Assembly (NCBI GenBank): GCA_963666055.2
Contig: CAXWPH010000012.1
Span: 288,001-352,000, forward strand
Reading direction: 5' to 3'
Origin: Acidobacteriota bacterium
GTDB taxonomy: Bacteria; Acidobacteriota; UBA890; WLXD01
DNA length: 64,000 nt
Of the stretch, positions 34,326-50,501 are shown piece by piece (position 1 is the stretch's first letter; each line of letters begins with the position of its first letter). The notes under the pieces are model-generated. The model made no database searches and was not told where the DNA came from. It saw only the letters and a list, made by a program, of their open reading frames with translations. A program made the translations under genes and the position numbers.

Positions 34326-34564
34326 GTGCGTCTCCCAGTGGGTGTGCCACAAGTTTCTTGGTGATGAGCGGTAGATACAGCGCTCGTCGATGGCGGTCAA
34401 GTGCGAGCGCGCAACTTGTAGCTGCTGCTGCCAAGAAAAAAGGGGCTCTCCGTTCGCCTGACAGACGGTCCCGGACCGATCGGGGAACGATACGGTTGCC
34501 GTCCTGCTACTGTCCAGAGTTCCGCCGTCCCGCTTCATCCGCTTCTCATCGCCCCGGCAGCCAC

Positions 34565-35371
34565 GTGACCCTTACTCGCGACCTCGCCCTCGCCGAGACA
34601 ATCGCGCGCGAGGCGTCCGAGATCCTGATGCGCTACTACCGAGGCGACTATCGGGTCGAGGCCAAGGCCGGTGGGGAGCCCGTTACCGAGGCCGACCGCG
34701 CCGCCAACGAGCACATTGTCGCTCGACTGCAGGAGCACTTCCCCGACGATGGCATTCTCGCCGAGGAATCTGCTGACCCGGCGGCGATCGTCGGCAAGCG
34801 GCGCGTTTGGATGGTGGACCCGATGGATGGCACCAAGGAGTTCACTCACCACCTAACCGAGTTCGCCGTGATGATCGGACTAGTGGTGGAGGGCACACCA
34901 GTGCTCGGCGTCGTCGCACAGCCCGCGGAGGAGATTGTTTACCGCGGCATCGTCGGCGAGGGGGCGGAACGCGTGCACCCGGATGGCGTCGATACGATGC
35001 GCGTCGGAACGACCAGCGAGCTCGCCGAGCTGACCTTGATCTGTAGTCGTTCGCACCTCCCCGAGATCGTCGAGCGCATGAAAGACGAGCTCGGCATCTC
35101 GCGCATGCTGCAGTCCGGCAGCGTCGGCCTGAAGATCGGCAAGATCGGTACCGGGGTTTGCGACCTCTATTTGCAGCCGGCATCCGGCACGAAGCTCTGG
35201 GACGCCTGCGCTCCGGAGGCGATTCTGCACGCCGCCGGTGGCCGCCTCACCGACTTCGACGGCCACCCGATCGACTATGACCCTCAGGACATCGTGAATC
35301 GCCGCGGCCTGCTGGGGAGCAACGGCACCCGCCACGACGACTTGGTGCAACGACTGCGCGGCTACTTCTAG
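34565..35371 (+). CDS. cysQ: 3'(2'),5'-bisphosphate nucleotidase (PAP phosphatase, IMPase family)
   Basis: PVTEAD, LAEE, WMVDPMDGTKEF, SRSH, GSVGLK, WDACA; directly upstream of sat/cysC. Confidence 0.85.
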   Translation: MTLTRDLALAETIAREASEILMRYYRGDYRVEAKAGGEPVTEADRAANEHIVARLQEHFPDDGILAEESADPAAIVGKRRVWMVDPMDGTKEFTHHLTEFAVMIGLVVEGTPVLGVVAQPAEEIVYRGIVGEGAERVHPDGVDTMRVGTTSELAELTLICSRSHLPEIVERMKDELGISRMLQSGSVGLKIGKIGTGVCDLYLQPASGTKLWDACAPEAILHAAGGRLTDFDGHPIDYDPQDIVNRRGLLGSNGTRHDDLVQRLRGYF

Positions 35372-35512: not shown

Positions 35513-35731
35513 ATGCCCGACCGTGTAAGCATCAAGATTCCCCGGCCGCTCTACAATCGGCTGCAGCGGGTCATCGACGGGTCGGGCTTCAGCTCGGCCA
35601 CCGACTTCATCGTCTACGTGCTTCGCGACCTGGTCGGGAGCCTGGAACCGGAGGCATCGTCGTCCTCCGATCTCAGCCAGGACGAGCTCGTGGCGATCCG
35701 CAAGAAGCTAGAAAACCTCGGATACCTCTAA
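35513..35731 (+). CDS. CopG-like ribbon-helix-helix protein with C-terminal LGY tail
   Basis: VSIKIPRPLY..L......GFSSATDFIVYVLR; ends IRKKLENLGYL. Confidence 0.8.
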   Translation: MPDRVSIKIPRPLYNRLQRVIDGSGFSSATDFIVYVLRDLVGSLEPEASSSSDLSQDELVAIRKKLENLGYL

Positions 35732-36900
35732 TGATCAAAGCTCACGGCGGGCGCCTCATCGAGCGCTTCGCATCAGCAACCGGACACACCGAGTGGCTCG
35801 AGCGTATCGACAAGCTCCCTGCCGTCACCATGAACCGCCGAGAAACCTCCGATCTGGAGATGATCGCCACCGGTGCCCTGAGCCCGCTCGAGGGTTTCAT
35901 GGGGCGCGACGACTACGAGCACGTATGCGCCCACGGCCGCTTGCCCGGCGGCCTGCCGTGGACGATACCGATCACGCTGGCGGTCGATTCTTCGACCGCG
36001 GCCGCCGTCGGGATCGGCGACCCGGTGGCGCTCAAGGGGCCCGACGGCACGCTACACGGTGTGCTCGAGTTGGCCGACGTCTACCAGCCCGACAAAGATC
36101 GCGAGGCGCTCCAGGTACTGCTGACGAATGACGACGCGCACCCCGGAGTCGCATACTTACGGTCGACCGGCGACACCTACCTGGGCGGCAGGATCACGCT
36201 GCTCCAGCGCCCGCATCACGCCAGCTTCGAGAGCTCGCGGCTCGATCCGCGCGAAACCCGTGTGCTGTTCAAGGCCAAGGGCTGGAACAGCGTCGCCGCC
36301 TTCCAGACCCGAAACCCGATTCACCGCGCCCACGAGTACCTGCAGAAGTGTGCTCTCGAACTGGTCGACGCACTGTTGATTCATCCGATCATGGGCGAGA
36401 CCAAGTCGGACGATATCCCGGCCGACGTGCGGCTCGAGTGCTACCAAACGCTGCTGCACAACTACTACCCGAAGGCACGCGTTGCACTGTCGATTCTGCC
36501 GGCGGCGATGCGCTATGCCGGCCCTCTTGAGGCCATCTTCCACGCCATCGTAAGAAAGAATTACGGCTGCACGCACTTCATCGTCGGCCGTGACCACGCC
36601 GGCGTCGGCGGCTACTACGGCACCTACGATGCGCACACCATCTTCGAGAAATTCGAAGCGCTCGAGATCGGCATCACGCCGCTCTTCTTCGACCACGCTT
36701 TCTACTGCCACGCTTGCCAGAACATGGCGTCACAGAAGACGTGTCCGCACGACAAGGAACAGCACGTGTTCCTGAGCGGCACGAAAATCCGCGACATGCT
36801 GGCACGCGGTGAAGAGCTGCCAAAGGAATTTACCCGGCCCGAGGTAGCGGAGATCTTGCGTCGTCACTATCAGGGGTCGACTGCCGGCGCCGTGGTGTGA
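35731..36900 (+). CDS. sat: Sulfate adenylyltransferase
   Basis: SPLEGFM, FQTRNPIHRAHEY, MRYAGP, HFIVGRDHAG, LSGT. Confidence 0.97.
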   Translation: MIKAHGGRLIERFASATGHTEWLERIDKLPAVTMNRRETSDLEMIATGALSPLEGFMGRDDYEHVCAHGRLPGGLPWTIPITLAVDSSTAAAVGIGDPVALKGPDGTLHGVLELADVYQPDKDREALQVLLTNDDAHPGVAYLRSTGDTYLGGRITLLQRPHHASFESSRLDPRETRVLFKAKGWNSVAAFQTRNPIHRAHEYLQKCALELVDALLIHPIMGETKSDDIPADVRLECYQTLLHNYYPKARVALSILPAAMRYAGPLEAIFHAIVRKNYGCTHFIVGRDHAGVGGYYGTYDAHTIFEKFEALEIGITPLFFDHAFYCHACQNMASQKTCPHDKEQHVFLSGTKIRDMLARGEELPKEFTRPEVAEILRRHYQGSTAGAVV

Positions 36901-36975: not shown

Positions 36976-37575
36976 ATGAAGGGCTTCACGCTCTGGTTTA
37001 CAGGGCTTTCGGGCTCCGGCAAGTCGACGCTGGCCACGGCAGTCGAAGAGGTTCTCCTCGAACGCGGTCTGCGGGTCGAGATCCTCGACGGCGACGAGGT
37101 ACGGACGAACCTGTCCAAAGGACTCGGCTTCTCGAAGGAAGACCGCGACACCAACATCCGCCGTATCGGCTACGTCTGTAATCTGCTGAGCCGCAACGGC
37201 GTGGCGGCGGTCTCCGCGGCCATTTCTCCCTATCGAGAGATCCGCGACGAGTTACGCGGATCGATCGAGAACTTCGTCGAGGTCTACGCGCGCTGCAGTA
37301 TCGAAGAGCTCGCACGACGGGATCCGAAGGGGCTATACAAACGAGCCCTGGCAGGTGAAATCCCCAATTTCACAGGCGTTTCCGATCCCTACGAGGAACC
37401 GGTCAACCCCGAGGTCGTCTGCGATACGGAGAAGGAGACGCCGGAGGAGAGCCTGGAAAAGATCGTGCGAAGCCTCGAGCTCATGGGGTACATTCCGCCC
37501 GCCGAGGACCACCACACCAGTCCGGAACAAGAAGAGGCGATCCGCGCACGGCTAGAATCGCTCGGATACCTCTGA
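36976..37575 (+). CDS. cysC: Adenylyl-sulfate kinase with extra C-terminal LGY tail
   Basis: [36 protein letters not shown]; ends [11 protein letters not shown]. Confidence 0.96.
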
Positions 37576-37594: not shown

Positions 37595-38887
37595 ATGTCG
37601 CGCAGCAAGCGACTCTGTCTGATCGGGCTCGACGGAGTACCGGAACAGCTGCTGCGACGCCTTGCCGACGACGGCGTCATGCCACGCTTGGCGGAGCGCA
37701 TCGCCGGCGCACACCTACGCTCGATGCGCGCCTCATTGCCGGAAATCTCCTCGGTGAGCTGGTCGAGCTTCATGACCGGGGCGGGTCCCAGCGAGCATGG
37801 GATCTACGGCTTCACCGATATCGAGCCTCAGAGCTACGGGCTCACGTTTCCGAGCTTTGCCGATGTGCGCATTCCAACCTTGTGGGACCGGCTCGGCCGC
37901 CGCGGCGTAACCTCGGTAGTGGTGAATCAGCCGGCAACCTATCCAGCTCGCTCGATTCCCGGCGTCATGGTCTCGGGCTTCGTTGCAGTGGATCTCACTC
38001 GCGCGGTCAAGCCACTACGGTGGCTGGGTCCGTTGCGACGCATGAACTACCGCATCGATATCGATACCGCACGCAGCCGCCAGGACCACGATTGGCTCAT
38101 GCGCGACCTGCGGCAGACGCTTCGAACAAGGCGCGAAGCGGTAATGCGGCTCTGGGACGAGGTCGATTGGCGCTTCCTGCAAGTCGTGGTTACCGGCACA
38201 GACCGCCTCTATCACTACCTCTGGGATGCGGTCGAGGACACGCGGCATCCGCGCCACCAGCAAACACTCGACTACCACCACGATGTGGACACCTTGGTGG
38301 GCGAGATATGGGACCGGTTCGCGGCCGAAGAGACCGATCCGGAGTCCTGCTTCTGGATGCTTTCGGACCACGGTTTCTGCGCCATTCGCCAGGAGGTGCA
38401 GCTGAACGCAGCTCTGAAGAACCTGGGCTATTTGACCCTCGGGGCCGAGGCGCCGGTAGATCTGACCTCACTCGAGCCAACGAGCCGAGCGTTCGCGCTG
38501 GATCCGGGGCGCATCTATCTGAATCGATCCGAACGGTTCGGGCGTGGCACCGTCGCCGAAAGCGATGCGCCGGCGCTCAAATCGGAGATCGCCAACGCGA
38601 TCAAAGAGCTGCGGTATGATGGGCAACGGGTCGTCCGCGAGGTGTTCGATGCTGCGGACATCTACGAACAGGGGCCTTGCTCCGCGCGCGGTCCCGACCT
38701 TGTCGCTCTCGCTTTCCCGGGGTTCGACCTCAAGGCGTCCCCGGCGGCGAGTGAGGTATTCGGACGCAGCGACCTCGTGGGTATGCACACGTACGACGAC
38801 GCCTTCCTCTTGACACCCCACCCCATCGAAGGCGACCTCTGGATCGGCGAGATCGCCGCGCATATTGAACAGGAGTACGACAAGTGA
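37595..38887 (+). CDS. AlkP-superfamily (NPP/phosphodiesterase-like) enzyme, predicted cytoplasmic
   Basis: IGLDG, SSVSWSSFMTG, DRLYH, SDHG, GMH; no signal peptide. Confidence 0.85.
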   Translation: MSRSKRLCLIGLDGVPEQLLRRLADDGVMPRLAERIAGAHLRSMRASLPEISSVSWSSFMTGAGPSEHGIYGFTDIEPQSYGLTFPSFADVRIPTLWDRLGRRGVTSVVVNQPATYPARSIPGVMVSGFVAVDLTRAVKPLRWLGPLRRMNYRIDIDTARSRQDHDWLMRDLRQTLRTRREAVMRLWDEVDWRFLQVVVTGTDRLYHYLWDAVEDTRHPRHQQTLDYHHDVDTLVGEIWDRFAAEETDPESCFWMLSDHGFCAIRQEVQLNAALKNLGYLTLGAEAPVDLTSLEPTSRAFALDPGRIYLNRSERFGRGTVAESDAPALKSEIANAIKELRYDGQRVVREVFDAADIYEQGPCSARGPDLVALAFPGFDLKASPAASEVFGRSDLVGMHTYDDAFLLTPHPIEGDLWIGEIAAHIEQEYDK

Positions 38888-41004
38888 GCACGCCGTCCCG
38901 GTTCGTGTCGCGCCTCGTCCTGGCCGTGCTGGCCGTCCTGGCGTACCCGCATGTCGCCGATGCCTACGTTGGTCCCGGAGCCGGCTTCGCGTTTATCAGC
39001 AGCTTCCTGGTGCTGTTCTCGACCATTCTGGCAGTCATCGCCTCGTTGCTGATCTGGCCGTTCCGCACCTTGTGGCGGGCGATCACGCGCCGTACGAAGG
39101 TGGCGCCCAAGATCCGGCGCCTCATCGTCGTCGGGTTCGACGGACAGGATCCGCAGTTAACCGACCGCTTCATGGCCGAAGGCAAGCTGCCGAACTTCAA
39201 GAAGCTGGCCGACATGGGCTGCTACAAGCCATTGAAGACAACGTTCCCGTCGATCTCTCCGGTAGCCTGGTCGTCGTTCTCAACCGGCGCTCACCCTGCG
39301 CGGCACAACATCTACGACTTTCTTGACCGCGACCGCCGCACATATTTGCCGGTGTTGTCATCGACCAAGATCGGTTCGGTCGATCGATTCCTGAACCTGG
39401 GACCGTTTCGTATTCCGCTCGAAAAACCGGAGCTCCGACTGCTACGCAAGTCGAAGCCGTTCTGGAGCGTCCTCGGCGAGCACAATATTTGGAGCACCGT
39501 GCTTCGGGTGCCGATCACCTTCCCACCCGACCGGTTCTATGGCGCCCAGCTCTCGGCGATGTGCGTCCCGGACCTTCTCGGAACGCAGGGCACGTTCCTG
39601 CTCTTCACCACCCGGCCCGAGAGCACCAAGTTCAAAGAGGGCGGCCAGCGAGTGCCGGTAACCATGGAGGGCGACCGCGTCACGGGGACCTTGCTGGGAC
39701 CCGAGAATATCCTGCGCAAAGGCAGCCCACCGCTGGAGTTACCGATCGTCGCCGAGCTCGACCGTGGCGCCAGCCGCGCGCGTGTCGCTTTCGGTTCCGA
39801 GAGCGTTGACCTGACCCTCGGCGAGCTTTCCGACTGGGTACCGCTGACGTTTCCTGCGGCGCCCGGCATCAAGGTCCGCGGCATCGGGCGCGTCATGATG
39901 ACCGAGATGAACGGCGACTTCTCCATGTACATGACGCCCATAGCGCTCGACCCGGAGCGACCGGCGATGCCGATTTCCCACCCCAACTACTACTCCGTGT
40001 ACCTGTCGAAGATGCAGGGAAAGTACTCGACGCTAGGGCTTGCCGAAGATACTTGGGCACTGAACGAGAAGGTGATCGACGACCGCCACTTCAAGGAACT
40101 GACGTTCGACATCGACGACGAGCGCAAGGACATGTTTTTCGCCGCGATGGAGCGGTTGCGCCGCGGCTGCTTGGTGTGCGTGTTCGACGCCACCGACCGC
40201 ATCCAGCACATGTTCTGGCGCTACATCGACGAGGGACATCCGGCCGACGATGGCAGCCAGGACGACTGTCGCGACACCATCGAGGAGCTCTACGTACGCA
40301 ACGACAAGCTCGTCGGTGAGGTGTTGGAGAGAGTCACCGAGGATGACCTGCTGATGGTGCTATCAGACCACGGCTTTACCTCATTCCGCCGTGGCCTGAA
40401 CCTCAATCGGTGGCTCCTCGACAACGGCTACCTCGCTCTCAAGGACGGCGCCGACGGCACCACCGAGTGGCTCCGCGCAGTCGACTGGTCGCGTACCAAA
40501 GCCTACTGTCTCGGGCTGTCGGGCATGTTCTTCAACATCAAGGGCCGCGAGTCGCAGGGCATCGTCGAACGCTCTGAAGTCGATTCCCTGAAAGCGGAGA
40601 TCGGCGCCAAGCTCAAAGGGCTGCGCGACGAGGAGAACAACGAGGTGGCCATCGTCGAGGCGTTCGATACCGCCCAGCTTTACCGGGGTCCGTATCTCGA
40701 GAACGCTCCCGAATTCATCATCGGATACAACCGCGGCTACCGTACTTCCTGGGATTGCGCCACCGGCGTAGTCGATGCGCCGCTATTCGAAGACAACGTG
40801 AAGGCGTGGAGTGGCGACCACTGCGTCGACCCACGGCTCGTTCCGGGAGTGTTGTTCTGTAATCGCGCCATCGACGTCGACGATCCTGCGCTCATCGACA
40901 TCGCCCCAACGGCGCTACAGCAGTTCGGTGTCCCGACTCCCAAGTACATGGACGGCCGACCGCTCTTCAAAGAGGGCGCCGAGGCCGATTCGGCTGGGTC
41001 TTGA
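38884..41004 (+). CDS. AlkP-superfamily (NPP-like) enzyme with N-terminal membrane anchor
   Basis: Hydrophobic segment-AYVGPGAG-TM; VGFDG, SPVAWSSFSTG, DRIQHMFW, SDHG, WSGDH. Confidence 0.85.
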   Translation: MSTPSRFVSRLVLAVLAVLAYPHVADAYVGPGAGFAFISSFLVLFSTILAVIASLLIWPFRTLWRAITRRTKVAPKIRRLIVVGFDGQDPQLTDRFMAEGKLPNFKKLADMGCYKPLKTTFPSISPVAWSSFSTGAHPARHNIYDFLDRDRRTYLPVLSSTKIGSVDRFLNLGPFRIPLEKPELRLLRKSKPFWSVLGEHNIWSTVLRVPITFPPDRFYGAQLSAMCVPDLLGTQGTFLLFTTRPESTKFKEGGQRVPVTMEGDRVTGTLLGPENILRKGSPPLELPIVAELDRGASRARVAFGSESVDLTLGELSDWVPLTFPAAPGIKVRGIGRVMMTEMNGDFSMYMTPIALDPERPAMPISHPNYYSVYLSKMQGKYSTLGLAEDTWALNEKVIDDRHFKELTFDIDDERKDMFFAAMERLRRGCLVCVFDATDRIQHMFWRYIDEGHPADDGSQDDCRDTIEELYVRNDKLVGEVLERVTEDDLLMVLSDHGFTSFRRGLNLNRWLLDNGYLALKDGADGTTEWLRAVDWSRTKAYCLGLSGMFFNIKGRESQGIVERSEVDSLKAEIGAKLKGLRDEENNEVAIVEAFDTAQLYRGPYLENAPEFIIGYNRGYRTSWDCATGVVDAPLFEDNVKAWSGDHCVDPRLVPGVLFCNRAIDVDDPALIDIAPTALQQFGVPTPKYMDGRPLFKEGAEADSAGS

Positions 41005-43022
41005 GTGCGCCTCGCGGCGGCCGGCCAACGATGCGATCCGTCATGCTGTGGAGCGTTCTGCTGGTCGTGTCGACGAGCAGCGCCTGCGGCAGCAGCTCGA
41101 GATCAGACGGACCGAACGTCATCGTGCTGGGGATAGACGGCCTCGACTACACCCTGACGCGGGAGCTTATCGACGCCGGCCGCTTGCCGAACTTCAAGCG
41201 GCTGGCGGACTCGGGCGCCTTCGGGCCTCTGGAAACGTCGCTGACTCCGCAGAGTCCGGTGGCCTGGTCGAACTTCATTACCGGCATGGACTCCGGCGGC
41301 CATGGGATCTACGACTTCCTGCATCGTGACCTGGAGCGTGATCCGCCGCTGCCCTTCGGTTGGCCCTATCAGGCGATGACCAAGGAGACTCCGGTGGGCC
41401 GGTCGCTCACGCTTGGCGGCTGGTCCTTCCCTCTCAGCGGCGGCGACATCCAACTGGCGCGATACGGCACACCGTTCTGGCAATTGCTCACCGACAACGG
41501 TATCGACAGCACTCTCATACGCATGCCCGCCAACTTTCCGCCCGTCGGCGCCGGTACCCGCGAGCTCTCGGGCATGGGGACCCCGGACCTCGGCGGCACG
41601 CCCGGTGAGTTCACGTTCTTCTCCACCGATCGCCGCCAATTCATGAAGACCGACGTATCGGGCGGGCATATCTACCCCGCCGACATCATCGATGGCGTGT
41701 TCAACGGAACCCTGTACGCCCTCACCGACAATCCCTTCACGCTGGAAGAGGGCGATGCGGTCGCAGCCGACTTCGAGGTATTCATCGATCCCGATAACCC
41801 CGTTGCAAAGATCGTAATCAACGACCAAGAGCTCATCCTGCAGGAAGGCGAGTGGAGCCCTTGGGTAAGTGCCGACTTTGATCTCGTGCCTTACGTAATG
41901 TCGATATCGGGCTCGGTGCGCTTCTACCTCAAGTCGGTACGTCCGGACTTCGGGCTTTACATCACGCCGATTCAGATCGATCCTCTCAACCCCGGGTCGG
42001 CAATCTCGCACCCGGACTCGTTCGCCACCGAGCTGGGCAACGCCACCGGCCGCTACTACACACAGGAGATGCCACAGGACACCAAGGCGCTCCAGTGGGG
42101 CGTCTTCGACCTCGACGAGTACCTGACGCAGGTCACGCTCACTCGCGCCGAGACGACGGCGCAGTACAAGTATCTCCTCGAGAACTGGACCGGCGGCTTT
42201 CTGTTCTCCTATTTCGGGAGCGCCGACCAAATCTCGCATGTCATGTGGGGCTTGACGCGCGACCCCGAGCACCCTGCATACGTGGCCGAGAGTCACGACC
42301 AATACCGTGACGTCATTCCGAGCTTGTACGAGGAGTTCGACGCGCTGGTCGGCTACACGCTGGATCGCATCGCCGACGATACCCTGTTGGTCGTCATGTC
42401 GGACCACGGGTTTGGCAGCTGGCGCCGATCGTTCAACCTCAATACGTGGCTGCACGATAACGGCTATATGGCACTGCAGCGTCGCACGCGCCTACCGATT
42501 CGGGAGTTCTTCGCCGGCGTCGACTGGGACGCCACTCAGGCGTACAGCGTCGGCATCAGCGCCCTGTACTTGAACATGCGCGGCCGTGAGCCGCAGGGCT
42601 TGGTGGCGCCCGGCGACCGCGACGAGTTACTCCTTCAGCTCGAACAAGATTTGTTGGCGACCGTGGACCCGGCCACCGGTGAGCCGGCCATCACCCGGGT
42701 GTTCATTCGTGAACGCGATTTCCACGACCGCGGCCACTTAGAGATAGGGCCCGACATCATCGTCGGCTACGCACCGCATGTGCGCGGTTCTGGCAACGGC
42801 GCTCTCGGCGGGCTGGCAGCGGAGTTCATTGTCGACAACACCGCCGATTGGTCAGGCGACCACATCTGGGACCCGACGGCGGTTCCGGGTGTGCTGCTGA
42901 CCAACCGCGCGCTGATACGGCCGGCGTCGTCGCTGCAGAACCTGGCAGCATCTCTGCTCGCCGAGTACGGCATCGACGGCTTCCGGGACGGCAGCACCCC
43001 AGTCACGGTTGAGACAAATTGA
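41001..43022 (+). CDS. AlkP-superfamily (NPP-like) enzyme, predicted lipoprotein
   Basis: SSAC lipobox-like; LGIDG, SPVAWSNFITG, DQISH, SDHG, WSGDH. Confidence 0.85.
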   Translation: MSAPRGGRPTMRSVMLWSVLLVVSTSSACGSSSRSDGPNVIVLGIDGLDYTLTRELIDAGRLPNFKRLADSGAFGPLETSLTPQSPVAWSNFITGMDSGGHGIYDFLHRDLERDPPLPFGWPYQAMTKETPVGRSLTLGGWSFPLSGGDIQLARYGTPFWQLLTDNGIDSTLIRMPANFPPVGAGTRELSGMGTPDLGGTPGEFTFFSTDRRQFMKTDVSGGHIYPADIIDGVFNGTLYALTDNPFTLEEGDAVAADFEVFIDPDNPVAKIVINDQELILQEGEWSPWVSADFDLVPYVMSISGSVRFYLKSVRPDFGLYITPIQIDPLNPGSAISHPDSFATELGNATGRYYTQEMPQDTKALQWGVFDLDEYLTQVTLTRAETTAQYKYLLENWTGGFLFSYFGSADQISHVMWGLTRDPEHPAYVAESHDQYRDVIPSLYEEFDALVGYTLDRIADDTLLVVMSDHGFGSWRRSFNLNTWLHDNGYMALQRRTRLPIREFFAGVDWDATQAYSVGISALYLNMRGREPQGLVAPGDRDELLLQLEQDLLATVDPATGEPAITRVFIRERDFHDRGHLEIGPDIIVGYAPHVRGSGNGALGGLAAEFIVDNTADWSGDHIWDPTAVPGVLLTNRALIRPASSLQNLAASLLAEYGIDGFRDGSTPVTVETN

Positions 43023-43125: not shown

Positions 43126-43320
43126 ATGTTCGGAGGCGGCAAGATCAAATTGGACAGTGGCCTACTGAACCGTGTCAGGAAGTATGCGGACATAGCCGGC
43201 TACTCCTCGGTCGAGGAGTTCATTACCTATGCGCTCGAGAAGGAGCTCGCCGTCCTCGAGGAGGCCGACTCCGAGGAAGAGATCCGCAAGAAGCTCCAGG
43301 GGCTCGGCTACATTTCCTGA
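43126..43320 (+). CDS. Second small RHH-like protein with LGY tail
   Basis: KIKLD..LL.RV......GYSSVEEFITYALE; ends IRKKLQGLGYIS; AGGAG RBS. Confidence 0.75.
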   Translation: MFGGGKIKLDSGLLNRVRKYADIAGYSSVEEFITYALEKELAVLEEADSEEEIRKKLQGLGYIS

Positions 43321-43341: not shown

Positions 43342-44181
43342 ATGAACGCCATTCTCGGCGCTGTGAACGGGCTGCTGCGCCCCCTGTTCGACCTGATGCT
43401 GCTGCCCTTTCGGCAGCTACACCCGATGATCGGGCTGACCATCGTGTCGCTGGGGTGCGCGGTGCTCATGCTGCTCGGATACCGCGCCACCTCCAATCAG
43501 CCGGCGGTTGAGCGCGTCAAACGCAGGATCGCCGCCGGCCTGTTCGAGATCCGCCTGTTCAACGACGACATCTTGGCGATCCTACGTGCTCAGGGCGGCA
43601 TCCTGCGCAATAACATGACCTATCTCGGCCTGAACCTGGTGCCGATGGTGTTCATGATGCTGCCGTTTGTCCTGGTCATTGCCCAGCTGCAGTTCCACTA
43701 CGGATATCGAGGCCTGACGGTTGGCGAGCCGACCGTTCTGCAGGTCAGCCTCGGGGACGGACTAGCCGCCAGCAGCGCGCCAGAGGCCGAGGTCACCTTG
43801 CCCGCGGGCCTACGGCTCGACAGCCCGCGGGTGTGGATGCCGGCGCGAAATCAGCTCGCCTGGCGGATCGTCGCCGACAGCCCAGGTGACTTCGAGGTGC
43901 AGATCGAAACCGCCGGCCAACGCGTCACCAAGCGGATCGTGGTATCCGACGCTGTCGTGCGTCGATCGCCCTATAGGCTGAAGCCCGGTTTCGTGAACAC
44001 GCTGCTGTACCCGGCCGAGCCCTCCCTGCCCAGCGACGGGATCGTCATCGAGATCAAGGTCAACTACCCGACACGCGCTGTCGGTCTTTTTGGTTTCGAG
44101 ACCGACTGGCTGATCGTCTTTTTCCTCTTGACGATGTCCCTCGCCTTCGCTCTCAAGGGCCGCTTCGGTGTAACCATCTAG
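43342..44181 (+). CDS. Membrane protein resembling DUF106/EMC3/TMCO1 (Oxa1 superfamily)
   Basis: Amphipathic N-helix, TM1, basic coiled hairpin, Met/Pro-rich TM2 (LVPMVFMMLPF), beta-rich loop domain, terminal TM starting WL..FF. Confidence 0.55.
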   Translation: MNAILGAVNGLLRPLFDLMLLPFRQLHPMIGLTIVSLGCAVLMLLGYRATSNQPAVERVKRRIAAGLFEIRLFNDDILAILRAQGGILRNNMTYLGLNLVPMVFMMLPFVLVIAQLQFHYGYRGLTVGEPTVLQVSLGDGLAASSAPEAEVTLPAGLRLDSPRVWMPARNQLAWRIVADSPGDFEVQIETAGQRVTKRIVVSDAVVRRSPYRLKPGFVNTLLYPAEPSLPSDGIVIEIKVNYPTRAVGLFGFETDWLIVFFLLTMSLAFALKGRFGVTI

Positions 44182-44189
44182 TGGCCTGC

Positions 44190-45605
44190 CTACTGCAGGT
44201 AGCCGAGGTCGCGCAAGCGCGCGATGTCTTCCGGCGATACGGTCCGCGCCTGGCGTTCGCTCGGCATGTTCTCTAACAGAGTAGCCAGCACGTCGCGCAT
44301 CTGATCGCGCCGATCGGCGAGCTCTGGCGCGGCGATCAAGTTGACAAGCTCGTACGGGTCACTGCGCAGGTCATAGAACTCGTCGTCGCCCTCTTCGTAG
44401 AGAAGGTACTTGTACTCGATGTCCTGGACCGCGTACCGCTCGCCGGGCTCGTAGTTGCCGCGCTGCTGCCGCCGCATCGAGGCGTCCTCGTAATAGCTGC
44501 GCTCGGCGAAGGCAAACCATCCGGCATCGCGTGGTCGGCCACCGCCCAGATACTGCGTGAGAGATCGGCCCTGCGTGGGCATGATCTGGTTTGGGGTCAG
44601 CTCAAAGATCGCCGCCACCGTCGGCAATACGTCGACATGTTGAACGACGCGCTGGTGTACGCGAATCCCCACCGCGCCGTCAGCGCTCCAGAACAGCAGC
44701 GGTACCCAGAGCTGGGCGTTGTAGATCTGCTTGGAATGCCCGAACCAATCATGAGCGCCGAGTCCCTGACCATGATCCGAGGTGACAATCCAGAGGGCCT
44801 CGTCGTTGAGACCGGTGGCGTCGAAGTGCGCAAACAAGCGCGCCAGCTGCCGGTCCGCATACATGATCTCGGCGTCATAAGCGGCCACATCGTTGCGCAC
44901 GACGCTATCCTCGTCGACGGCCGGAATGCCACGGCTTGCCAGCAGATCACGATACGCCTGCTCGCCATACTCGGCGATCATGCCCTCGACCTCCTCGAGA
45001 ACCTCGTACGGCGGCTGAAGCGGCTTGTGGGGGTCGTACACATGGACCCAGAGAAAGAACCTCTCTCGACCGTCAGCGACCGCCTCGTCGACCCAGGCCA
45101 ATGCACGATCGACAGTGTCGCCCGCGGCGCGGTACAGCTTGCGCCCCCCCTCCGTCTGGCGATCGACCCGATGCTGATCCCAAACCTCGAAACCCTGCCC
45201 AACGTTGCCCCCCAGCGCCGCGTCCGTGCTCACGAACGCCGCCGTCGTGTACCCCGCTGCACCTAGTAGCTCTGCCATCGTCTCGAACTCCTCGTCGAGA
45301 ACCAGACCGTTGTTCTGAACGCGGTGTTGCACTGGATACAGCGACGTGAACAGCGACGCATGCGAAGGCTTCGTGGTCGCGGAATGCGCATAGGCGCGCG
45401 TGAACAGCGTCCCTTCCGCAGCCAGTCGATCCAGGAACGGCGTCGTGGCGATGGGATAACCAAAGCTCGACATGTGGTCGGCGCGCAAGGTATCGACAGT
45501 GATCAGCACCAGTCGCTGCGGTACCGCCATCTCCGGAGTGCTCGCCGAGCAGGCTGCAACCAATCCCGCCAGCGCCATGGTTGCCGCCACGGCCACCCTT
45601 GTCAT
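44190..45605 (-). CDS. Sulfatase-like lipoprotein (Thr at the nucleophile position) with LGY tail
   Basis: VAAC lipobox, ITVDTLRADH, TTKPSHASLFT, HVYDPH, TSDHG, DP.E..N; ends RLRDLGYLQ. Confidence 0.85.
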   Translation of the reverse strand: MTRVAVAATMALAGLVAACSASTPEMAVPQRLVLITVDTLRADHMSSFGYPIATTPFLDRLAAEGTLFTRAYAHSATTKPSHASLFTSLYPVQHRVQNNGLVLDEEFETMAELLGAAGYTTAAFVSTDAALGGNVGQGFEVWDQHRVDRQTEGGRKLYRAAGDTVDRALAWVDEAVADGRERFFLWVHVYDPHKPLQPPYEVLEEVEGMIAEYGEQAYRDLLASRGIPAVDEDSVVRNDVAAYDAEIMYADRQLARLFAHFDATGLNDEALWIVTSDHGQGLGAHDWFGHSKQIYNAQLWVPLLFWSADGAVGIRVHQRVVQHVDVLPTVAAIFELTPNQIMPTQGRSLTQYLGGGRPRDAGWFAFAERSYYEDASMRRQQRGNYEPGERYAVQDIEYKYLLYEEGDDEFYDLRSDPYELVNLIAAPELADRRDQMRDVLATLLENMPSERQARTVSPEDIARLRDLGYLQ

Positions 45606-46306
45606 TCCCCGTCCTCACCCAAGCTCATCGACTCACCGGAGTTGAGATAGCCATACAGCACCGCCGCAACCACGCCGCCGAGCAGCGGCCCCAGCCAGTA
45701 TACCTAGTGAGAAGTCCAGTACCCGGCCGCGAGCGCCGGCCCGAAGGCGCGCGCCGGGTTGAGCGCGGCGCCCGTCAAGGGACCGCCGACAAGCACGGCG
45801 GCGCCCAGCGTGGCACCGATGACCAAGCCGTGCACATGCTGCGGAGCGCGCCGGGCAGCCGCCATCTGCAGGACTACGAACACCAGCACGAGCGTCAGGA
45901 TCATCTCCAGGAAAACGCCCGTCCCGACCTCCACGCCGGGTCCCAGCGCCGGCGCGCCAAGGTGCACAGGCTGCCACACGTCGGCGCCGAAAGTCGCTGC
46001 CAGCATCAGGCCGGCAACGAGCGCTCCCATTAACTGGGCCGCGAAGTAAGCGTAGGCCCGCGACGGATCGATCGCTCGCACGAGCAGCGCCCCCAACGTT
46101 ACCGCCGGATTGACGTGCGCCCCGGACACGTGTCCGAGCGAGCTGACGATGGCCGCCAACGTCAGCCCCTGAGCCAACGCTATCCCCACGATGCCGACCT
46201 CGCCGCCACTGTAGGAGTCGGTACAGATCGCCGCCGCCGCCATGAATGTGAGGACGAACGTCCCAACACCCTCCGAGACCACGCACACGGCGAGCTCGCG
46301 GCTCAT
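45602..46306 (-). pseudogene. MIP/aquaporin with in-frame TAG at 45704-45706
   Basis: SGAHVNPA and LNPAR motifs; after TAG the frame continues VYWLGPLLGGVVAAVLY to a TGA overlapping the sulfatase ATG. Confidence 0.8.
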
Positions 46307-46362
46307 CCGAGCCCCGAGCAGGCGGCGCCAGCTCACCTCCATCTGCTCAACCCTCGCAAGGA

Positions 46363-47655
46363 TCAGCGGGTGCCGCTGACAACGATCGACATGGCGGGAC
46401 CTGGTAGCTCCACCCGTGTGCCGTCGGCATAAAGGGCCGCGGCGCCGTCGCCGCTAATCTCGAGCGCCGCCGGCCGGCCTTCGTACACGGAGGCGAGCAT
46501 GCCAGTGTCGATCATGAACAGCCGGCCGTCGAACCTAGAGACAATGCCGTCGGCCTGCGGCGTGTGCCCGATGACCATCGCCCGCACCTCCAGGGCGCCG
46601 AGAAGCGCCTCGAGCACCGCGGCGTGATCCGGATCCGACAAGGTTGCCAAGCCGCGAAACCAAAGAGGGCCGCGCTCGGCCAACACGTACCACCGCTGAA
46701 TGCGAAAGAGCGACTCATACCAGGCCCTCTTGTCGGCCTCAGAGTCGCCACTCGCACTCGAAAGCTCCGGCAGACCTGTTTTGGCCCGGTCGAGCCACTC
46801 GAGCCCACCGGTCTGCTGCGTCGCGCCCCGGATAACTTCCCTCAACTCCCCGAACGAGGTCACCAGACGAGCCCCGATCAGCGCCTCCCTATACGCGTCA
46901 AGGGCGACAATCTCGTCGGCAACCCGCTGATTCAGAGACTCGAGCCCTCGGGCGGAGTGCTCGGGCGCCACACCAGCGTGCATGAAGGCAATGCCGTCGA
47001 TCGTGGCAGACAATGGCAGGGTCCTGAGCCAGGCGCCGTAGGATCCACCCGGTCCAACGGCGCGCACGTACGCAATGCGTTCGGCCGACGTGTTCTCCTG
47101 CCAGCTGTTGCGCAGATCGCGGCGCCGCCGGGACGACATCCGACCGGTCGACGTTGACTCGATTACGCGCTGCAGCTCGTCCCAGGCGCTATCGAGAACG
47201 TCGTCCGCATCGTCGTCGAAAAACTGCGCCATCTGCTCGTCGGTCGCGTCGCGAAACTCGCCGATCAGGTTCATGACCTCGTGGTTGCCGAGCAACACGA
47301 CCACCTCGCCACCTGAGTCGGGCGCCTCCCCTTGCAGCCGCATCAACAGGTCCATCACCTGGCGGACGGCGGCGCCGCGGTCCATGAAGTCGCCCGTCTG
47401 AACGAACACGGTGTCGCCGCCACTCCACTTCAAATCAGCATCGATGATGCCAGCAACCCGGAGCACCGAGACCAACTCGTCGTAGGCACCGTGGATGTCG
47501 CCCACCGCGATGATGCGACGCGACTCGGTCTCGTAGCCGGCAATCGGAGCCGTGGTTTGGGGCGCCGGGCTCGTACCCAACGCTGGCGTCAGCAGCATCG
47601 CGAAGCCGAGAGCCAGAGCGATGGTCGTAGTTCGCGTCAGCATCATTCGGGGCAT
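46363..47655 (-). CDS. Secreted calcineurin-like metallophosphoesterase (Shewanella-like phosphatase type)
   Basis: GDIHG, GDFMDRG, GNHE, FMHAG, GPLWFR, GHT, IDTG. Confidence 0.88.
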   Translation of the reverse strand: MPRMMLTRTTTIALALGFAMLLTPALGTSPAPQTTAPIAGYETESRRIIAVGDIHGAYDELVSVLRVAGIIDADLKWSGGDTVFVQTGDFMDRGAAVRQVMDLLMRLQGEAPDSGGEVVVLLGNHEVMNLIGEFRDATDEQMAQFFDDDADDVLDSAWDELQRVIESTSTGRMSSRRRRDLRNSWQENTSAERIAYVRAVGPGGSYGAWLRTLPLSATIDGIAFMHAGVAPEHSARGLESLNQRVADEIVALDAYREALIGARLVTSFGELREVIRGATQQTGGLEWLDRAKTGLPELSSASGDSEADKRAWYESLFRIQRWYVLAERGPLWFRGLATLSDPDHAAVLEALLGALEVRAMVIGHTPQADGIVSRFDGRLFMIDTGMLASVYEGRPAALEISGDGAAALYADGTRVELPGPAMSIVVSGTR

Positions 47656-47838
47656 GGGATCGAACTCCTACACAGGGGCCACAGGACCGGATTTCCAGAA
47701 TTGATGATACGCCGATTCACCCGCACGAACCGGTGTCTCCGGCCGACCGATCGCCACCGGCGACCGCTCGGTGGTCAGCTCGTACCGACCGCGATCGGAG
47801 TGCCGAGGCATTGCTCGCCAAGCGGGTACCATGGCCCA

Positions 47839-48582
47839 GTGAACGCCCTGATTCAAATCGATGAGCTGGTAAAAGACTACGGTGGGCACCGAGCTGTCGA
47901 CGGGCTGTCGGTCACCGTGGCCAGCGGCGAGATACTCGGTCTCGTGGGGCCTAACGGCGCTGGCAAGACCACCACGCTGAGATGCCTGGCCGGAATTGTA
48001 CCGGCTACCTCCGGCCGGATCCGTATTGCCGGACACGATCTGACCCAAGCACCCGTCGAGGCGCGGCGAGGACTGGCCTTCGTTCCCGACGAGCCGCACT
48101 TGTTCGACCATCTAACGGTCTCCGATCACCTCGAGCTGTTCGCTCGTCTATACGACGTTGCCGAGAGCGCCTCGCGCGCCGAGAAGTTGCTGCGCGACAA
48201 CGCGCTGTGGGATCGCCGCCACGCCTTTCCCGGCGAGCTGTCGCGTGGCATGAAGCAGAAGCTCCTGCTGTCGTGCGCGTTGTTGCACTCGCCGAAGGTA
48301 CTGATCCTCGACGAGCCGCTCACCGGGCTCGACCCGGCGGCGATGCGCCGCACCAAGCGCACCATCACTGCCACGGCGGCGGCGGGCGCAGCGGTGCTGA
48401 TCTCGTCCCACATGCTGCACCTGGTAGAAGAGATCTGCGGGCGCATCCTGATCATCAACAACGGCCGCCGCGCCGTCGCCGGCACCCTCGACGAGATCCG
48501 CGCCGCGGTTCCCGATCTCTCAGGCGATGCCGACCTGGAAGAGATCTTCATGCGCGCCACCGGGCTAGATGACACGCCTTGA
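47839..48582 (+). CDS. ABC transporter ATP-binding protein
   Basis: GPNGAGKTT, LSRGMKQK, ILDEP, SSH. Confidence 0.92.
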   Translation: MNALIQIDELVKDYGGHRAVDGLSVTVASGEILGLVGPNGAGKTTTLRCLAGIVPATSGRIRIAGHDLTQAPVEARRGLAFVPDEPHLFDHLTVSDHLELFARLYDVAESASRAEKLLRDNALWDRRHAFPGELSRGMKQKLLLSCALLHSPKVLILDEPLTGLDPAAMRRTKRTITATAAAGAAVLISSHMLHLVEEICGRILIINNGRRAVAGTLDEIRAAVPDLSGDADLEEIFMRATGLDDTP

Positions 48583-50501
48583 CGCGAGCGTTGCTCTTCC
48601 TGCTCGTGAGGTCCGCCCGCGGGCGCACCGTTCAAGCGCTGCGGCGCCTGCGCGAACCACGTTACCTGATCGGCTTCCTCATCGGCGCCGGATGGGCGGC
48701 GTTCTGGCTGTCGAGCCTGTTCGGGAGGTCGCCGGTGGGCTTCGACTTCTCGGGAGACGTGCAGTTCGGATTACCGGCCGAAGCAGTCGAGTCGCTCGCG
48801 GGCCCGCTCGGCAAAGCCCTACAGCTCAGCATCGCGCTGCTGCTTGCCGGCGGTGTCACCGTATGGTGGCTGGTGCCCTTCGGCAGGAACGCGCTGCAGT
48901 TCAGTGAATCCGAGCTACACCTGCTGCTGCCCGCCCCGCTGCTGCGCCGCCGGCTGATCCAGTACGGCGTTCTACGCAGTCAGCCTGGAGTGCTATTCGG
49001 GGTAGCGATTGTCACCTTCTTTTCGCGACCTCGTGAGATCGGCGCCGCCCTGACTACCTTCACAGCGGTCTGGATCTTCATGAGCATCTGGGATCTGCAC
49101 TCGAAGGGGCGGGGCCTGTGGCTAGCGCTACTGGCCGAGATGCCGCGCGGCGCCGCCTGGCGGCGACGGATCCTGGTATGGGCGGCACTGCTCATCCTGT
49201 GGGTCCTGCTGATTGCCGGTCTGAACGCGGTCTTTGTCGAGGTTCTCGCGACGCCCGCCACGCCGACAGAACTGAGCGGTGACGTCCTGGACAACCTGGT
49301 CGAGATGGCTTCCGTGCACGCAGACAATGCCTGGAGCGGCCCTCTAGGCTGGGCGCTGACCCCATTCCTGTGGCTCATCGCCCCCGTCTTTGCCGGCATC
49401 GGAGCAACGAACCCCATCCAGCTGCTGGCCACCTGGGCGATTCCGTTGCTGTTGTTGCTGGCGCACAACGAGTGGGTCGTGCGTGGGCAGGCGCGCTTCG
49501 AGGAGGCCGCCCTCGAACAGGCGAGGCGACGCGGCCGCGACGCCGACCCCGCCGCCCGTCTTTGGCGCCGATCGCAGCGTCGAAGGCAGTGGCAGCCGTT
49601 CCCTTTGACGCCGCGCAGCAGGCCCGAGATGGTCGTTGTTTGGAAGAACGTGATGCTCGTACAGCGGCTTCCGTTCAAGACGCTGTTCGCCGCCGGTGTG
49701 GCCTTGATCGTGCTGCTGATTGCCACCGCTCTGACCGGGCTGCTGCCGGCGCGATGGGTCGGCGTACTGCAGATCGGCGGCGCCGCGCTGATGATCTTTC
49801 CACCGGTGTTTCCCACCCGTACGCTACGCAACGACCTGCGCACCGATCTGCTCAAGCTCGAGATGATCCGACCCTGGCCGCTCGCTGGAGCGCGCATGTT
49901 CCTGGCTCAGGTAGCGGCACCATTCGTCTTGATAGCCATGCGCGTGGGTTTCGGCGCCCTGCTGCTGGTCAGCGTCGACACCGCCCTCGAGCTCGGCCTG
50001 ATCAACTTCGCCGGTGGCGCTGGGCTCGCCGAATCATCGGGACTCTGGGAGGCGGCCGGAAAAGCGGACCTGGCGACGGGGCTCGGTGTCTCGTCGCTGT
50101 TGCTCACACCTCTGGTCGTGCTGGGGGTGCTACCGCTGAGCCTGACGGTGGCGCTGCTTTCGATCGGCCTCGAAAACCTCGCGGCGCTAACATTCCCTGG
50201 CTGGGTACCGCTCGGCATGAAGAAGCAGGCGGCTTCCCAGTTTGGTCACAACCTGCTGGTGTTCATGGCGATATCCATGGCGCTGTTCTTCGGCCTCGCT
50301 CCGGGCGTGCTGGTGATCGGCGCCACACTGGCAACTCAGGTTTGGCTCTGGGGGATCCCGCTCAGCGCCTGGGAGCTGCCCGTGCTGGGGATCGCTGGCG
50401 CCATGCCGGTTCTCGCCATCGTTGTTGCGCTCGCCGGCGTTGGCGGTAGTCTCTGGGACCGGCTCGATCCTTCCGAAGAGATCCTCGCCGACAGTATCTG
50501 A
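48579..50501 (+). CDS. Putative ABC exporter membrane subunit
   Basis: Multi-TM protein translationally coupled to the ATPase. Confidence 0.75.

Follow-up and report, generated by a model that had tools for sequence, protein, structure and literature searches.

Results

Gene content of the locus

The gene under study (hereafter the Oxa1-like gene) lies in a window of 64,000 nucleotides, the whole stretch of DNA that was analysed. It is the last plus-strand gene of a tight run made up of RHH1, sat, cysC, AlkP1, AlkP2, AlkP3 and RHH2, with gaps of -4 to 103 bp, and a convergent sulfatase-like gene ends just beyond it at 44190 (Table 1). A scan for promoters and terminators gave results at chance level. 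AlkP1-3 keep the GxDG, D...H, SDHG and G[DM]H motifs, with Ser at the nucleophile site, which we take to be where the NPP nucleophile sits. Because the variable signal peptide of AlkP2 ends in A-x-A and is followed by YxGPGAG, one TM and a basic helix, the N-terminal Tyr of the mature enzyme is predicted to lie outside and its catalytic domain in the cytoplasm, where it is likely to act as the inside loader of the relay discussed below. AlkP3 carries a lipoprotein-type signal here and a Tat-type (twin-arginine) signal in other lineages, and is therefore predicted to be periplasmic, as an unloader. RHH2 had no match in Pfam, the RHH fold being a label of the original prediction alone. Where stops fell inside AlkP2 matches, no split anchors were found in the loci read.

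The PAPS sulfotransferase of this genome is encoded on another contig, and a single ASST-family match lies far from the cassette (G000:C15:2143734-2144399). Downstream, positions 45704-50501 hold aquaporin-family, metallophosphoesterase and ABC exporter genes, which are syntenic only in the three closest loci and fall outside the cassette. At another locus (L099:8385-8534) a second, tail-less RHH2-like gene adjoins the LGY-tailed one.

Table 1 Features of the locus and their positions in the window
Feature	Position	Strand	Description	Basis or occurrence
Inositol-monophosphatase-family (CysQ-like) gene	34535..35371	+		Similar genes in 17/80 loci
RHH1	35513..35731	+	72 aa, LGY-tailed	Weak RHH_1 match (E 0.13); lineage-restricted, 2/80 loci
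sat	35731..36900	+	Sulfate adenylyltransferase	Family match
cysC	36976..37575	+	APS kinase with LxxLGYL tail	Family match
AlkP1	37595..38887	+	NPP-type, without hydrophobic segment	Candidate alternative loader
AlkP2	38884..41004	+	NPP-type (PF01663)
YxGPG membrane arm of AlkP2	38965..39099	+	Mature N-terminal Tyr28 and TM	Free microprotein in type II
AlkP3	41001..43022	+	Paralogue of AlkP2 (36-37% identity)
RHH2	43126..43320	+	64 aa, C-terminal LxxLGYIS	Adjoins Oxa1-like gene in 79/80 loci
Oxa1-like gene	43342..44181	+	DUF106/Ylp1-type Oxa1-superfamily membrane protein, 279 aa	Sequence profiles and model
TM1, hairpin and TM2	43423..43701	+	TM1 (28-50), predicted cytoplasmic helical hairpin (53-92), TM2 (93-120)	Model, conservation, MJ0480 alignment
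Inserted beta region	43702..44103	+	Residues 121-254, predicted periplasmic; Ig/filamin-like sandwich 122-205	Model, fold search
TM3	44107..44154	+	From conserved W256, with S/T264	Model, profile alignment, conservation
Sulfatase-like lipoprotein gene	44190..45605	-	T-K-P-S-H at nucleophile motif, LxxLGYLQ tail	Sequence

Architecture and family of the Oxa1-like protein

The AlphaFold2 model of the protein (pLDDT 92.7, pTM 0.84) has helices at residues 2-23 and 28-50, a hairpin (53-72/77-92) running into a helix at 93-120, beta structure at 122-254 and a last helix at 256-271, while hydropathy peaks fall at 26-50, 92-120 and 252-275. Model and hydropathy together give a core of three TMs in which a coiled hairpin separates TM1 from TM2, and bear out the layout originally described, namely an amphipathic helix, TM1, a hairpin, TM2, a beta domain and a TM starting with Trp. 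This Trp (W256) is present in 97% of 132 diverse homologues. TM2 had also been called Met-rich; Met is indeed enriched there, but only mildly across the family (0.053, against 0.010-0.034 elsewhere); position 102 is Met in 31% of rows and position 105 in 45%. On searching with Foldseek, the whole model returned only Ig-like domains, as did a second look at the fold. Natural short relatives do without the beta region, TM2 and TM3 being joined by a short loop, and the Ig-like region is therefore best seen as an insert.

Conservation is concentrated in the hairpin (S51-N-Q53, K60, E69-x-R71-L72), above all at its tip (65-76), in TM2 (Y94, P101, P108, Q/H115) and in parts of the beta insert. Conserved residues of surface type include K60, E69, R71 and D75 in the hairpin and W174, R175, K197, R212, E226 and Y242 in the insert. 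Polar positions in the family alignment occur in all three TMs: S36 (76% polar), 39 (67%), Y94 (98%), 98 (71%), Q/H115 (100%) and S/T264 (89%). No conserved Arg or Lys was found in the TM core, basic residues being confined to helix ends and position 96 (55%). The hairpin averages 7.0 K/R against 4.5 D/E, and K/R occupies positions 48 and 272 in 89% of rows, a bias that fits the predicted N-out/C-in topology.

Searched against PDB sequences, the single protein matched only MJ0480/Ylp1 (5C8J, E 1e-4), which was also the sole significant match of the family profiles (E 7.4e-11 and E 6.3e-11). The homology spans the N-helix, TM1, hairpin and TM2, with TM3 covered weakly; the second of these profile runs also aligned a weak second stretch at the TM3 Trp. 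PF01956 was matched by 33/101 close members at E<=0.1 (best 5e-5) and by 6/132 diverse members at E<=0.01 (best 4.8e-8); the query protein alone had no Pfam match, PF01956 included. The protein has three TMs, where the core of YidC has five, and neither it nor its alignments matched PF02096 (YidC). Fold comparison with the model of residues 1-125 gave no match at E<=0.001, only generic hairpins, and no Oxa1 member was listed for this model or for the whole one. The fold evidence for Oxa1 membership is only suggestive. Profile homology to MJ0480 and PF01956 supports, at the level of sequence, the predicted DUF106/EMC3/TMCO1-like assignment: the protein is a bacterial DUF106/Ylp1-type member of the Oxa1 superfamily, closer to DUF106 than to YidC, as had been proposed.

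Relatives are numerous: 1611 of 4752 candidates pass E<=0.001, a search of sequences clustered at 50% identity gives 2170, and of the relatives among the matches listed 14/120 had already been named 'uncharacterized membrane protein (DUF106 family)' by automatic annotation. Alignment of the short form with the long one reaches probability 98.1; searched against proteins, the short form matched only itself. Longer fused forms were absent among 7998 candidates (weak evidence), and a 1072-aa frame in G386 that looked like a fusion proved to be an overlap with another reading frame. In the available text of two sources DUF106 is treated as archaeal and eukaryotic (PMC5868721; bioRxiv 10.1101/2020.12.20.422553); our results place this archaeal-type branch in bacteria of several phyla. 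DUF106-type members may pair with an EMC6/Elp1-type heterodimer partner, as the available part of the latter has it (bioRxiv 10.1101/2020.12.20.422553). No EMC6/Elp1-like three-TM partner recurred among the gene clusters of the cassette neighbourhoods.

Conservation of the type I cassette

Neighbourhoods were compared in the best 80 of 246 genome loci, mostly from Acidobacteriota, 19 of which form one close group by shared neighbours. The Oxa1-like gene is adjoined by RHH2 in 79/80 of these loci, by AlkP2 in 77/80 and by AlkP3 in 75/80, whereas sat-like and cysQ-like genes occur in 17/80 each and cysC-like genes in 6/80. The conserved unit is thus the AlkP2-AlkP3-RHH2 trio with the Oxa1-like gene (type I); the idea that the gene closes a sulfur operon holds for its position at the end of this run, but not for the operon as a conserved unit. 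A 200-aa PAPS sulfotransferase is found in 63/80 type I loci.

Among 301 genomes of the phylum, the Oxa1-like gene is present in 87 (88 minus one match at E 4e-4) and full-length AlkP2 in 84, of which 81 also have the Oxa1-like gene. The three AlkP2-only genomes are 75-83% complete, and the six Oxa1-like-only genomes have partial or lower-scoring AlkP matches. APS kinase occurs in 81/87 Oxa1-like-positive against 103/214 other genomes, and the small sulfotransferase in 59/87 against 13/214, counts that depend on kinship and include the unpublished genome G024 among the 214. By hand count, AlkP1 is present in 22/28 Oxa1-like-positive genomes without the small sulfotransferase and in 15/59 with it. 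In the phylum of G301, 14/121 genomes match, and the sulfotransferase is present in 10/11 type I loci read there; several of them (L130-L137) also have, upstream of AlkP2, a small ORF of 160-220 aa with an LGY tail.

One might suppose that type I moves a phosphoryl group (phosphoglycerol or phosphoethanolamine), or that the protein is a spare general insertase, the link to sulfur being incidental. AlkP1-3 are of the PF01663 phosphodiesterase type, a name that points to phosphodiesters, and sat or cysC is nearby in only about a quarter of loci. Yet the frequency of the adjoining PAPS sulfotransferase in both phyla, the purely sulfur-transferring enzymes of the type II loci described below, and the effect of AlkP-fold proteins on glycan sulfation in Halobacterium, given in the available text of PMC11980604, make this very improbable.

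Some loci depart from this pattern. The Oxa1-like gene is absent from L106 (L106:5550-11779), L107 and L108, where an anchor-less AlkP2-like enzyme is followed by an LGY-tailed AlkP and then by a sulfatase-like gene, possibly a cytoplasm-only version; in L106 an SxtJ-family gene (PF19588) lies upstream. Lone exported AlkP3-like genes occur at L102, L103, L105, L109 and L110, the genomes concerned having yielded neither AlkP2 nor the Oxa1-like gene, and about 100 genomes of the phylum hold one more distant AlkP3-type AlkP.

A tyrosine-tipped arm and LGY tails

The mature N-terminus of AlkP2 carries Tyr in 97/97 scorable anchors (from 103 ORFs, five being fragments without an anchor and one cut), as do 39/39 free microproteins of type II (40, one cut), giving 136/136 scorable anchors in all; scoring used a profile without the Tyr column, although the rows of that profile had been selected by this motif. 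The AlkP2 profile matches the free microprotein through its first 44 positions (E 1.9e-6). As basic residues follow the TM, the arm is predicted to be N-out/C-in. This YxGPG arm is likely to be the sulfate carrier.

LGY tails form a second set of terminal tyrosines. In this genome LxxLGY[ILV] forms the C-terminus of 15 ORFs, where 0.64 would be expected: RHH1, RHH2, cysC and 12 others, 11 of which are among the 32 sulfatase-like ORFs. The tail is possibly a tyrosine swing-arm that marks AlkP-fold sulfotransferases.

RHH2 was considered as an obligate partner of the Oxa1-like protein and rejected, as it was not detected in type II loci; this role apparently falls to the N-terminal helix of AlkP2. 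Co-folding the Oxa1-like protein with the 52-residue AlkP2 arm scored 0.00 in two runs, which is no answer and counts neither way.

A second cassette with exchanged enzymes

Type II came to light through a weak match, in which a free YxGPG microprotein is followed by a 142-aa Ig-less form of the Oxa1-like protein (L129); similar genes occur in 3/60 relatives of that genome. In L142 and L156 the order is ASST (PF14269, E 1e-37), YxGPG microprotein, short Oxa1-like gene and sulfotransferase (PF13469, E 2e-19); three ASST matches lie upstream in L157, and peptide, Oxa1-like gene and sulfotransferase are present in L158. All four type II genomes contain ASSTs, and none has a match at the level of AlkP2 or AlkP3. 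The inside and outside enzymes are thus exchanged for unrelated folds, while the Oxa1-like core and the Tyr-tipped helix stay. What is conserved with the Oxa1-like protein is apparently the YxGPG membrane helix and not the sulfur operon.

When metagenomes were scanned with the type II sulfotransferase, 80 of the 203 loci obtained were kept; 50 of these have at least 1.4 kb upstream (roomy). In these 50 we found peptide, Oxa1-like gene and ASST together in 17, peptide and gene in 8, peptide and ASST without the gene in 10, peptide only in 2, gene only in 2, ASST only in 4 and none in 7. Hence the peptide accompanies the Oxa1-like gene in 25 of 27 roomy loci, and ASST is also present in 17 of the 25. 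The Oxa1-like gene is missing from 12/37 roomy loci with the peptide, in several of which the peptide gene abuts the sulfotransferase, so that the groove may be dispensable, replaced by YidC or encoded elsewhere. At L218, L221, L223, L224, L226, L240 and L242, ASST, microprotein and sulfotransferase occur without an Oxa1-like gene and the motif is more degenerate (YLGPGGG, YIGIGG). Conversely, L196 and L198 have the Oxa1-like gene without a detected YxGPG peptide, the upstream TM peptide of L198 being without the motif. In G353, where peptide and short form are both present, neither a loader nor an ASST lies within 16 kb, and the type II sulfotransferase query gave no match. In L173 a TM protein of 124 aa next to the peptide was rejected as Oxa1-like, since the Oxa1-like profiles gave it no score. 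A blind test was made in the phylum of G303, where 5/201 genomes matched the short profile: one type I centre genome, two weak matches without a cassette gene in short loci, and two strong new ones, in both of which sulfotransferase, Oxa1-like gene, peptide and ASST are all present.

It could be argued that the Oxa1 fold is a scaffold, holding the inside loader (by the hairpin) and the outside acceptor (by the Ig insert) around the arm while the groove stays idle. The conserved surface-type residues of hairpin and insert would suit such a role, as would the absence of the gene from some type II loci. However, the Ig insert itself is missing in many type II proteins, the flanking enzymes have been swapped while membrane core and arm were kept, and the polar TM positions are conserved; we regard a pure scaffold as quite improbable.

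Discussion

We rejected the idea that the Oxa1-like protein is a general insertase replacing YidC. Its own genome carries a normal YidC elsewhere, and YidC was present in all five other genomes tested; the patchy distribution of the gene beside YidC also means that it is not a housekeeping gene. The original prediction offered either a pathway-dedicated insertase or a hydrophilic groove. Both ideas survive, and gene context favours a groove that moves a charged carrier.

Under the first of them, a dedicated biogenesis insertase would insert or orient the YxGPG helix once (N-out), perhaps after sulfation of the Tyr in the cytoplasm, and the arm would be a single-use carrier or cycle without a groove. 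The Oxa1 members described in the available text of PMC5868721 act in protein biogenesis, and the known activity of the superfamily is on simple proteins with small translocated regions (PMC5868721). The tail of the arm that lies outside is very short, and 6/45 microproteins, if their unverified starts are right, lack a hydrophobic leader (score <=1.4) and would need something to move their N-tail. Loci without the Oxa1-like gene would fit replacement by YidC. Still, as every genome tested has YidC, one would have to explain why a single helix should require another insertase; to spend a 680-residue enzyme on each single-use carrier would be costly; and the conserved hairpin tip and insert parts fit enzymes docking on both faces. 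We therefore consider a biogenesis role unlikely, though worth keeping in mind.

The pathway as a whole is probably a sulfate relay. Sat and CysC, assigned to their families from sequence, would supply PAPS by their established reaction, and the inositol-monophosphatase-family protein may remove PAP. In type I, the PAPS sulfotransferase or AlkP1, a possible alternative loader, would sulfate the C-terminal LGY tyrosine of RHH2, the likely cytoplasmic sulfotyrosine carrier; the active-site Ser of AlkP2 could take the sulfate and transfer it to the Tyr on the enzyme's own N-terminal arm. In type II loci loading would be direct, from the PAPS sulfotransferase to the free microprotein. If the arm is N-out, its Tyr must visit the cytoplasmic side to meet the loader, and the flexible GPG[AP]G linker may swing through thinned membrane at the Oxa1 groove, where a putative lining of conserved S/T/Y/Q positions is a plausible route for it. 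On balance we lean towards a polar groove that lets the sulfotyrosine YxGPG arm cross the membrane as a cycling gate, the transfer steps being inferred. Outside, AlkP3 (type I) or ASST (type II) would remove the sulfate, which would then go to envelope glycans. In type I the LGY tails of sulfatase-like enzymes that are exported would probably serve as intermediates, and among these enzymes the lipoprotein beside the Oxa1-like gene is a candidate end acceptor.

PAPS is made in the cytoplasm and ASSTs work outside, and tyrosine O-sulfate is an aryl sulfate. According to the available text of a 2026 review (PMC13426309), ASSTs take only aryl sulfates and not PAPS, and their natural substrate is not known. 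Because the inside enzyme of type II needs PAPS and the outside family takes aryl sulfates, a sulfotyrosine relay would be the simplest reading. We give an even chance to the full proposal, in which the Oxa1 groove is repurposed for a cycling sulfotyrosine arm within a modular sulfate-export relay, with AlkP2 or the PAPS sulfotransferase as loaders and AlkP3 or ASST as unloaders, providing the natural donor for one class of periplasmic ASSTs and for LGY-tailed 'sulfatases' that really add sulfate. If true, the relay would answer where periplasmic ASSTs get their natural donor and would give the Oxa1 fold a new job; it also suggests a role for many annotated sulfatases in building sulfated cell coats.

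Judged by titles and the opening of abstracts, no paper in the literature searched, which takes in few subscription journals, deals with this bacterial DUF106 family or its cassette; the DUF106 papers that came up concern archaea and eukaryotes. The closest known proteins are Ylp1/MJ0480 (DUF106, PF01956, PDB 5C8J), TMCO1, EMC3 and Get1, with a common three-TM core and TM1-TM2 hairpin and, for MJ0480, sequence homology; the three-TM core with a coiled hairpin is among the Oxa1-superfamily features listed in the available text of PMC5868721. In contrast to these proteins, the Oxa1-like protein belongs to bacteria, where its distribution is patchy, coexists with an intact YidC, usually has an Ig insert and a conserved hydrophobic hairpin tip, and is tied to a Tyr-tipped helix and sulfur-transfer enzymes. 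For the relay itself, three systems offer parallels. In Halobacterium salinarum, the AlkP-fold sulfatase-like proteins VNG1056C and VNG1057C act in N-glycan sulfation, and so resemble type I in using AlkP-fold 'sulfatases' to add sulfate; their donor route is unnamed, and the words PAPS, periplasm and tyrosine are absent from the available text (PMC11980604). The caprazamycin pathway offers the second parallel. There, the PAPS sulfotransferase Cpz8 reportedly charges an aromatic shuttle that the ASST Cpz4 then uses; that shuttle is said to be a small diffusible metabolite, whereas the YxGPG relay would use a membrane peptide crossing the bilayer. Lastly, in DltX and PatA of the MBOAT-SGNH systems, as described in the available text of PMC12148441, an invariant Tyr on a free or fused membrane peptide carries an acyl group between two enzymes, the second of which forms a covalent intermediate. 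The invariant Tyr of the scorable anchors and their gene context, between two transferases, are alike. DltX and PatA, however, combine a C-terminal FXYXXF with MBOAT, and types I and II an N-terminal YxGPG with an Oxa1 fold, AlkP, P-loop sulfotransferase or ASST enzymes and, as predicted, sulfate; by analogy, the YxGPG arm would thus work like the DltX/PatA shuttle without being a member of that family.
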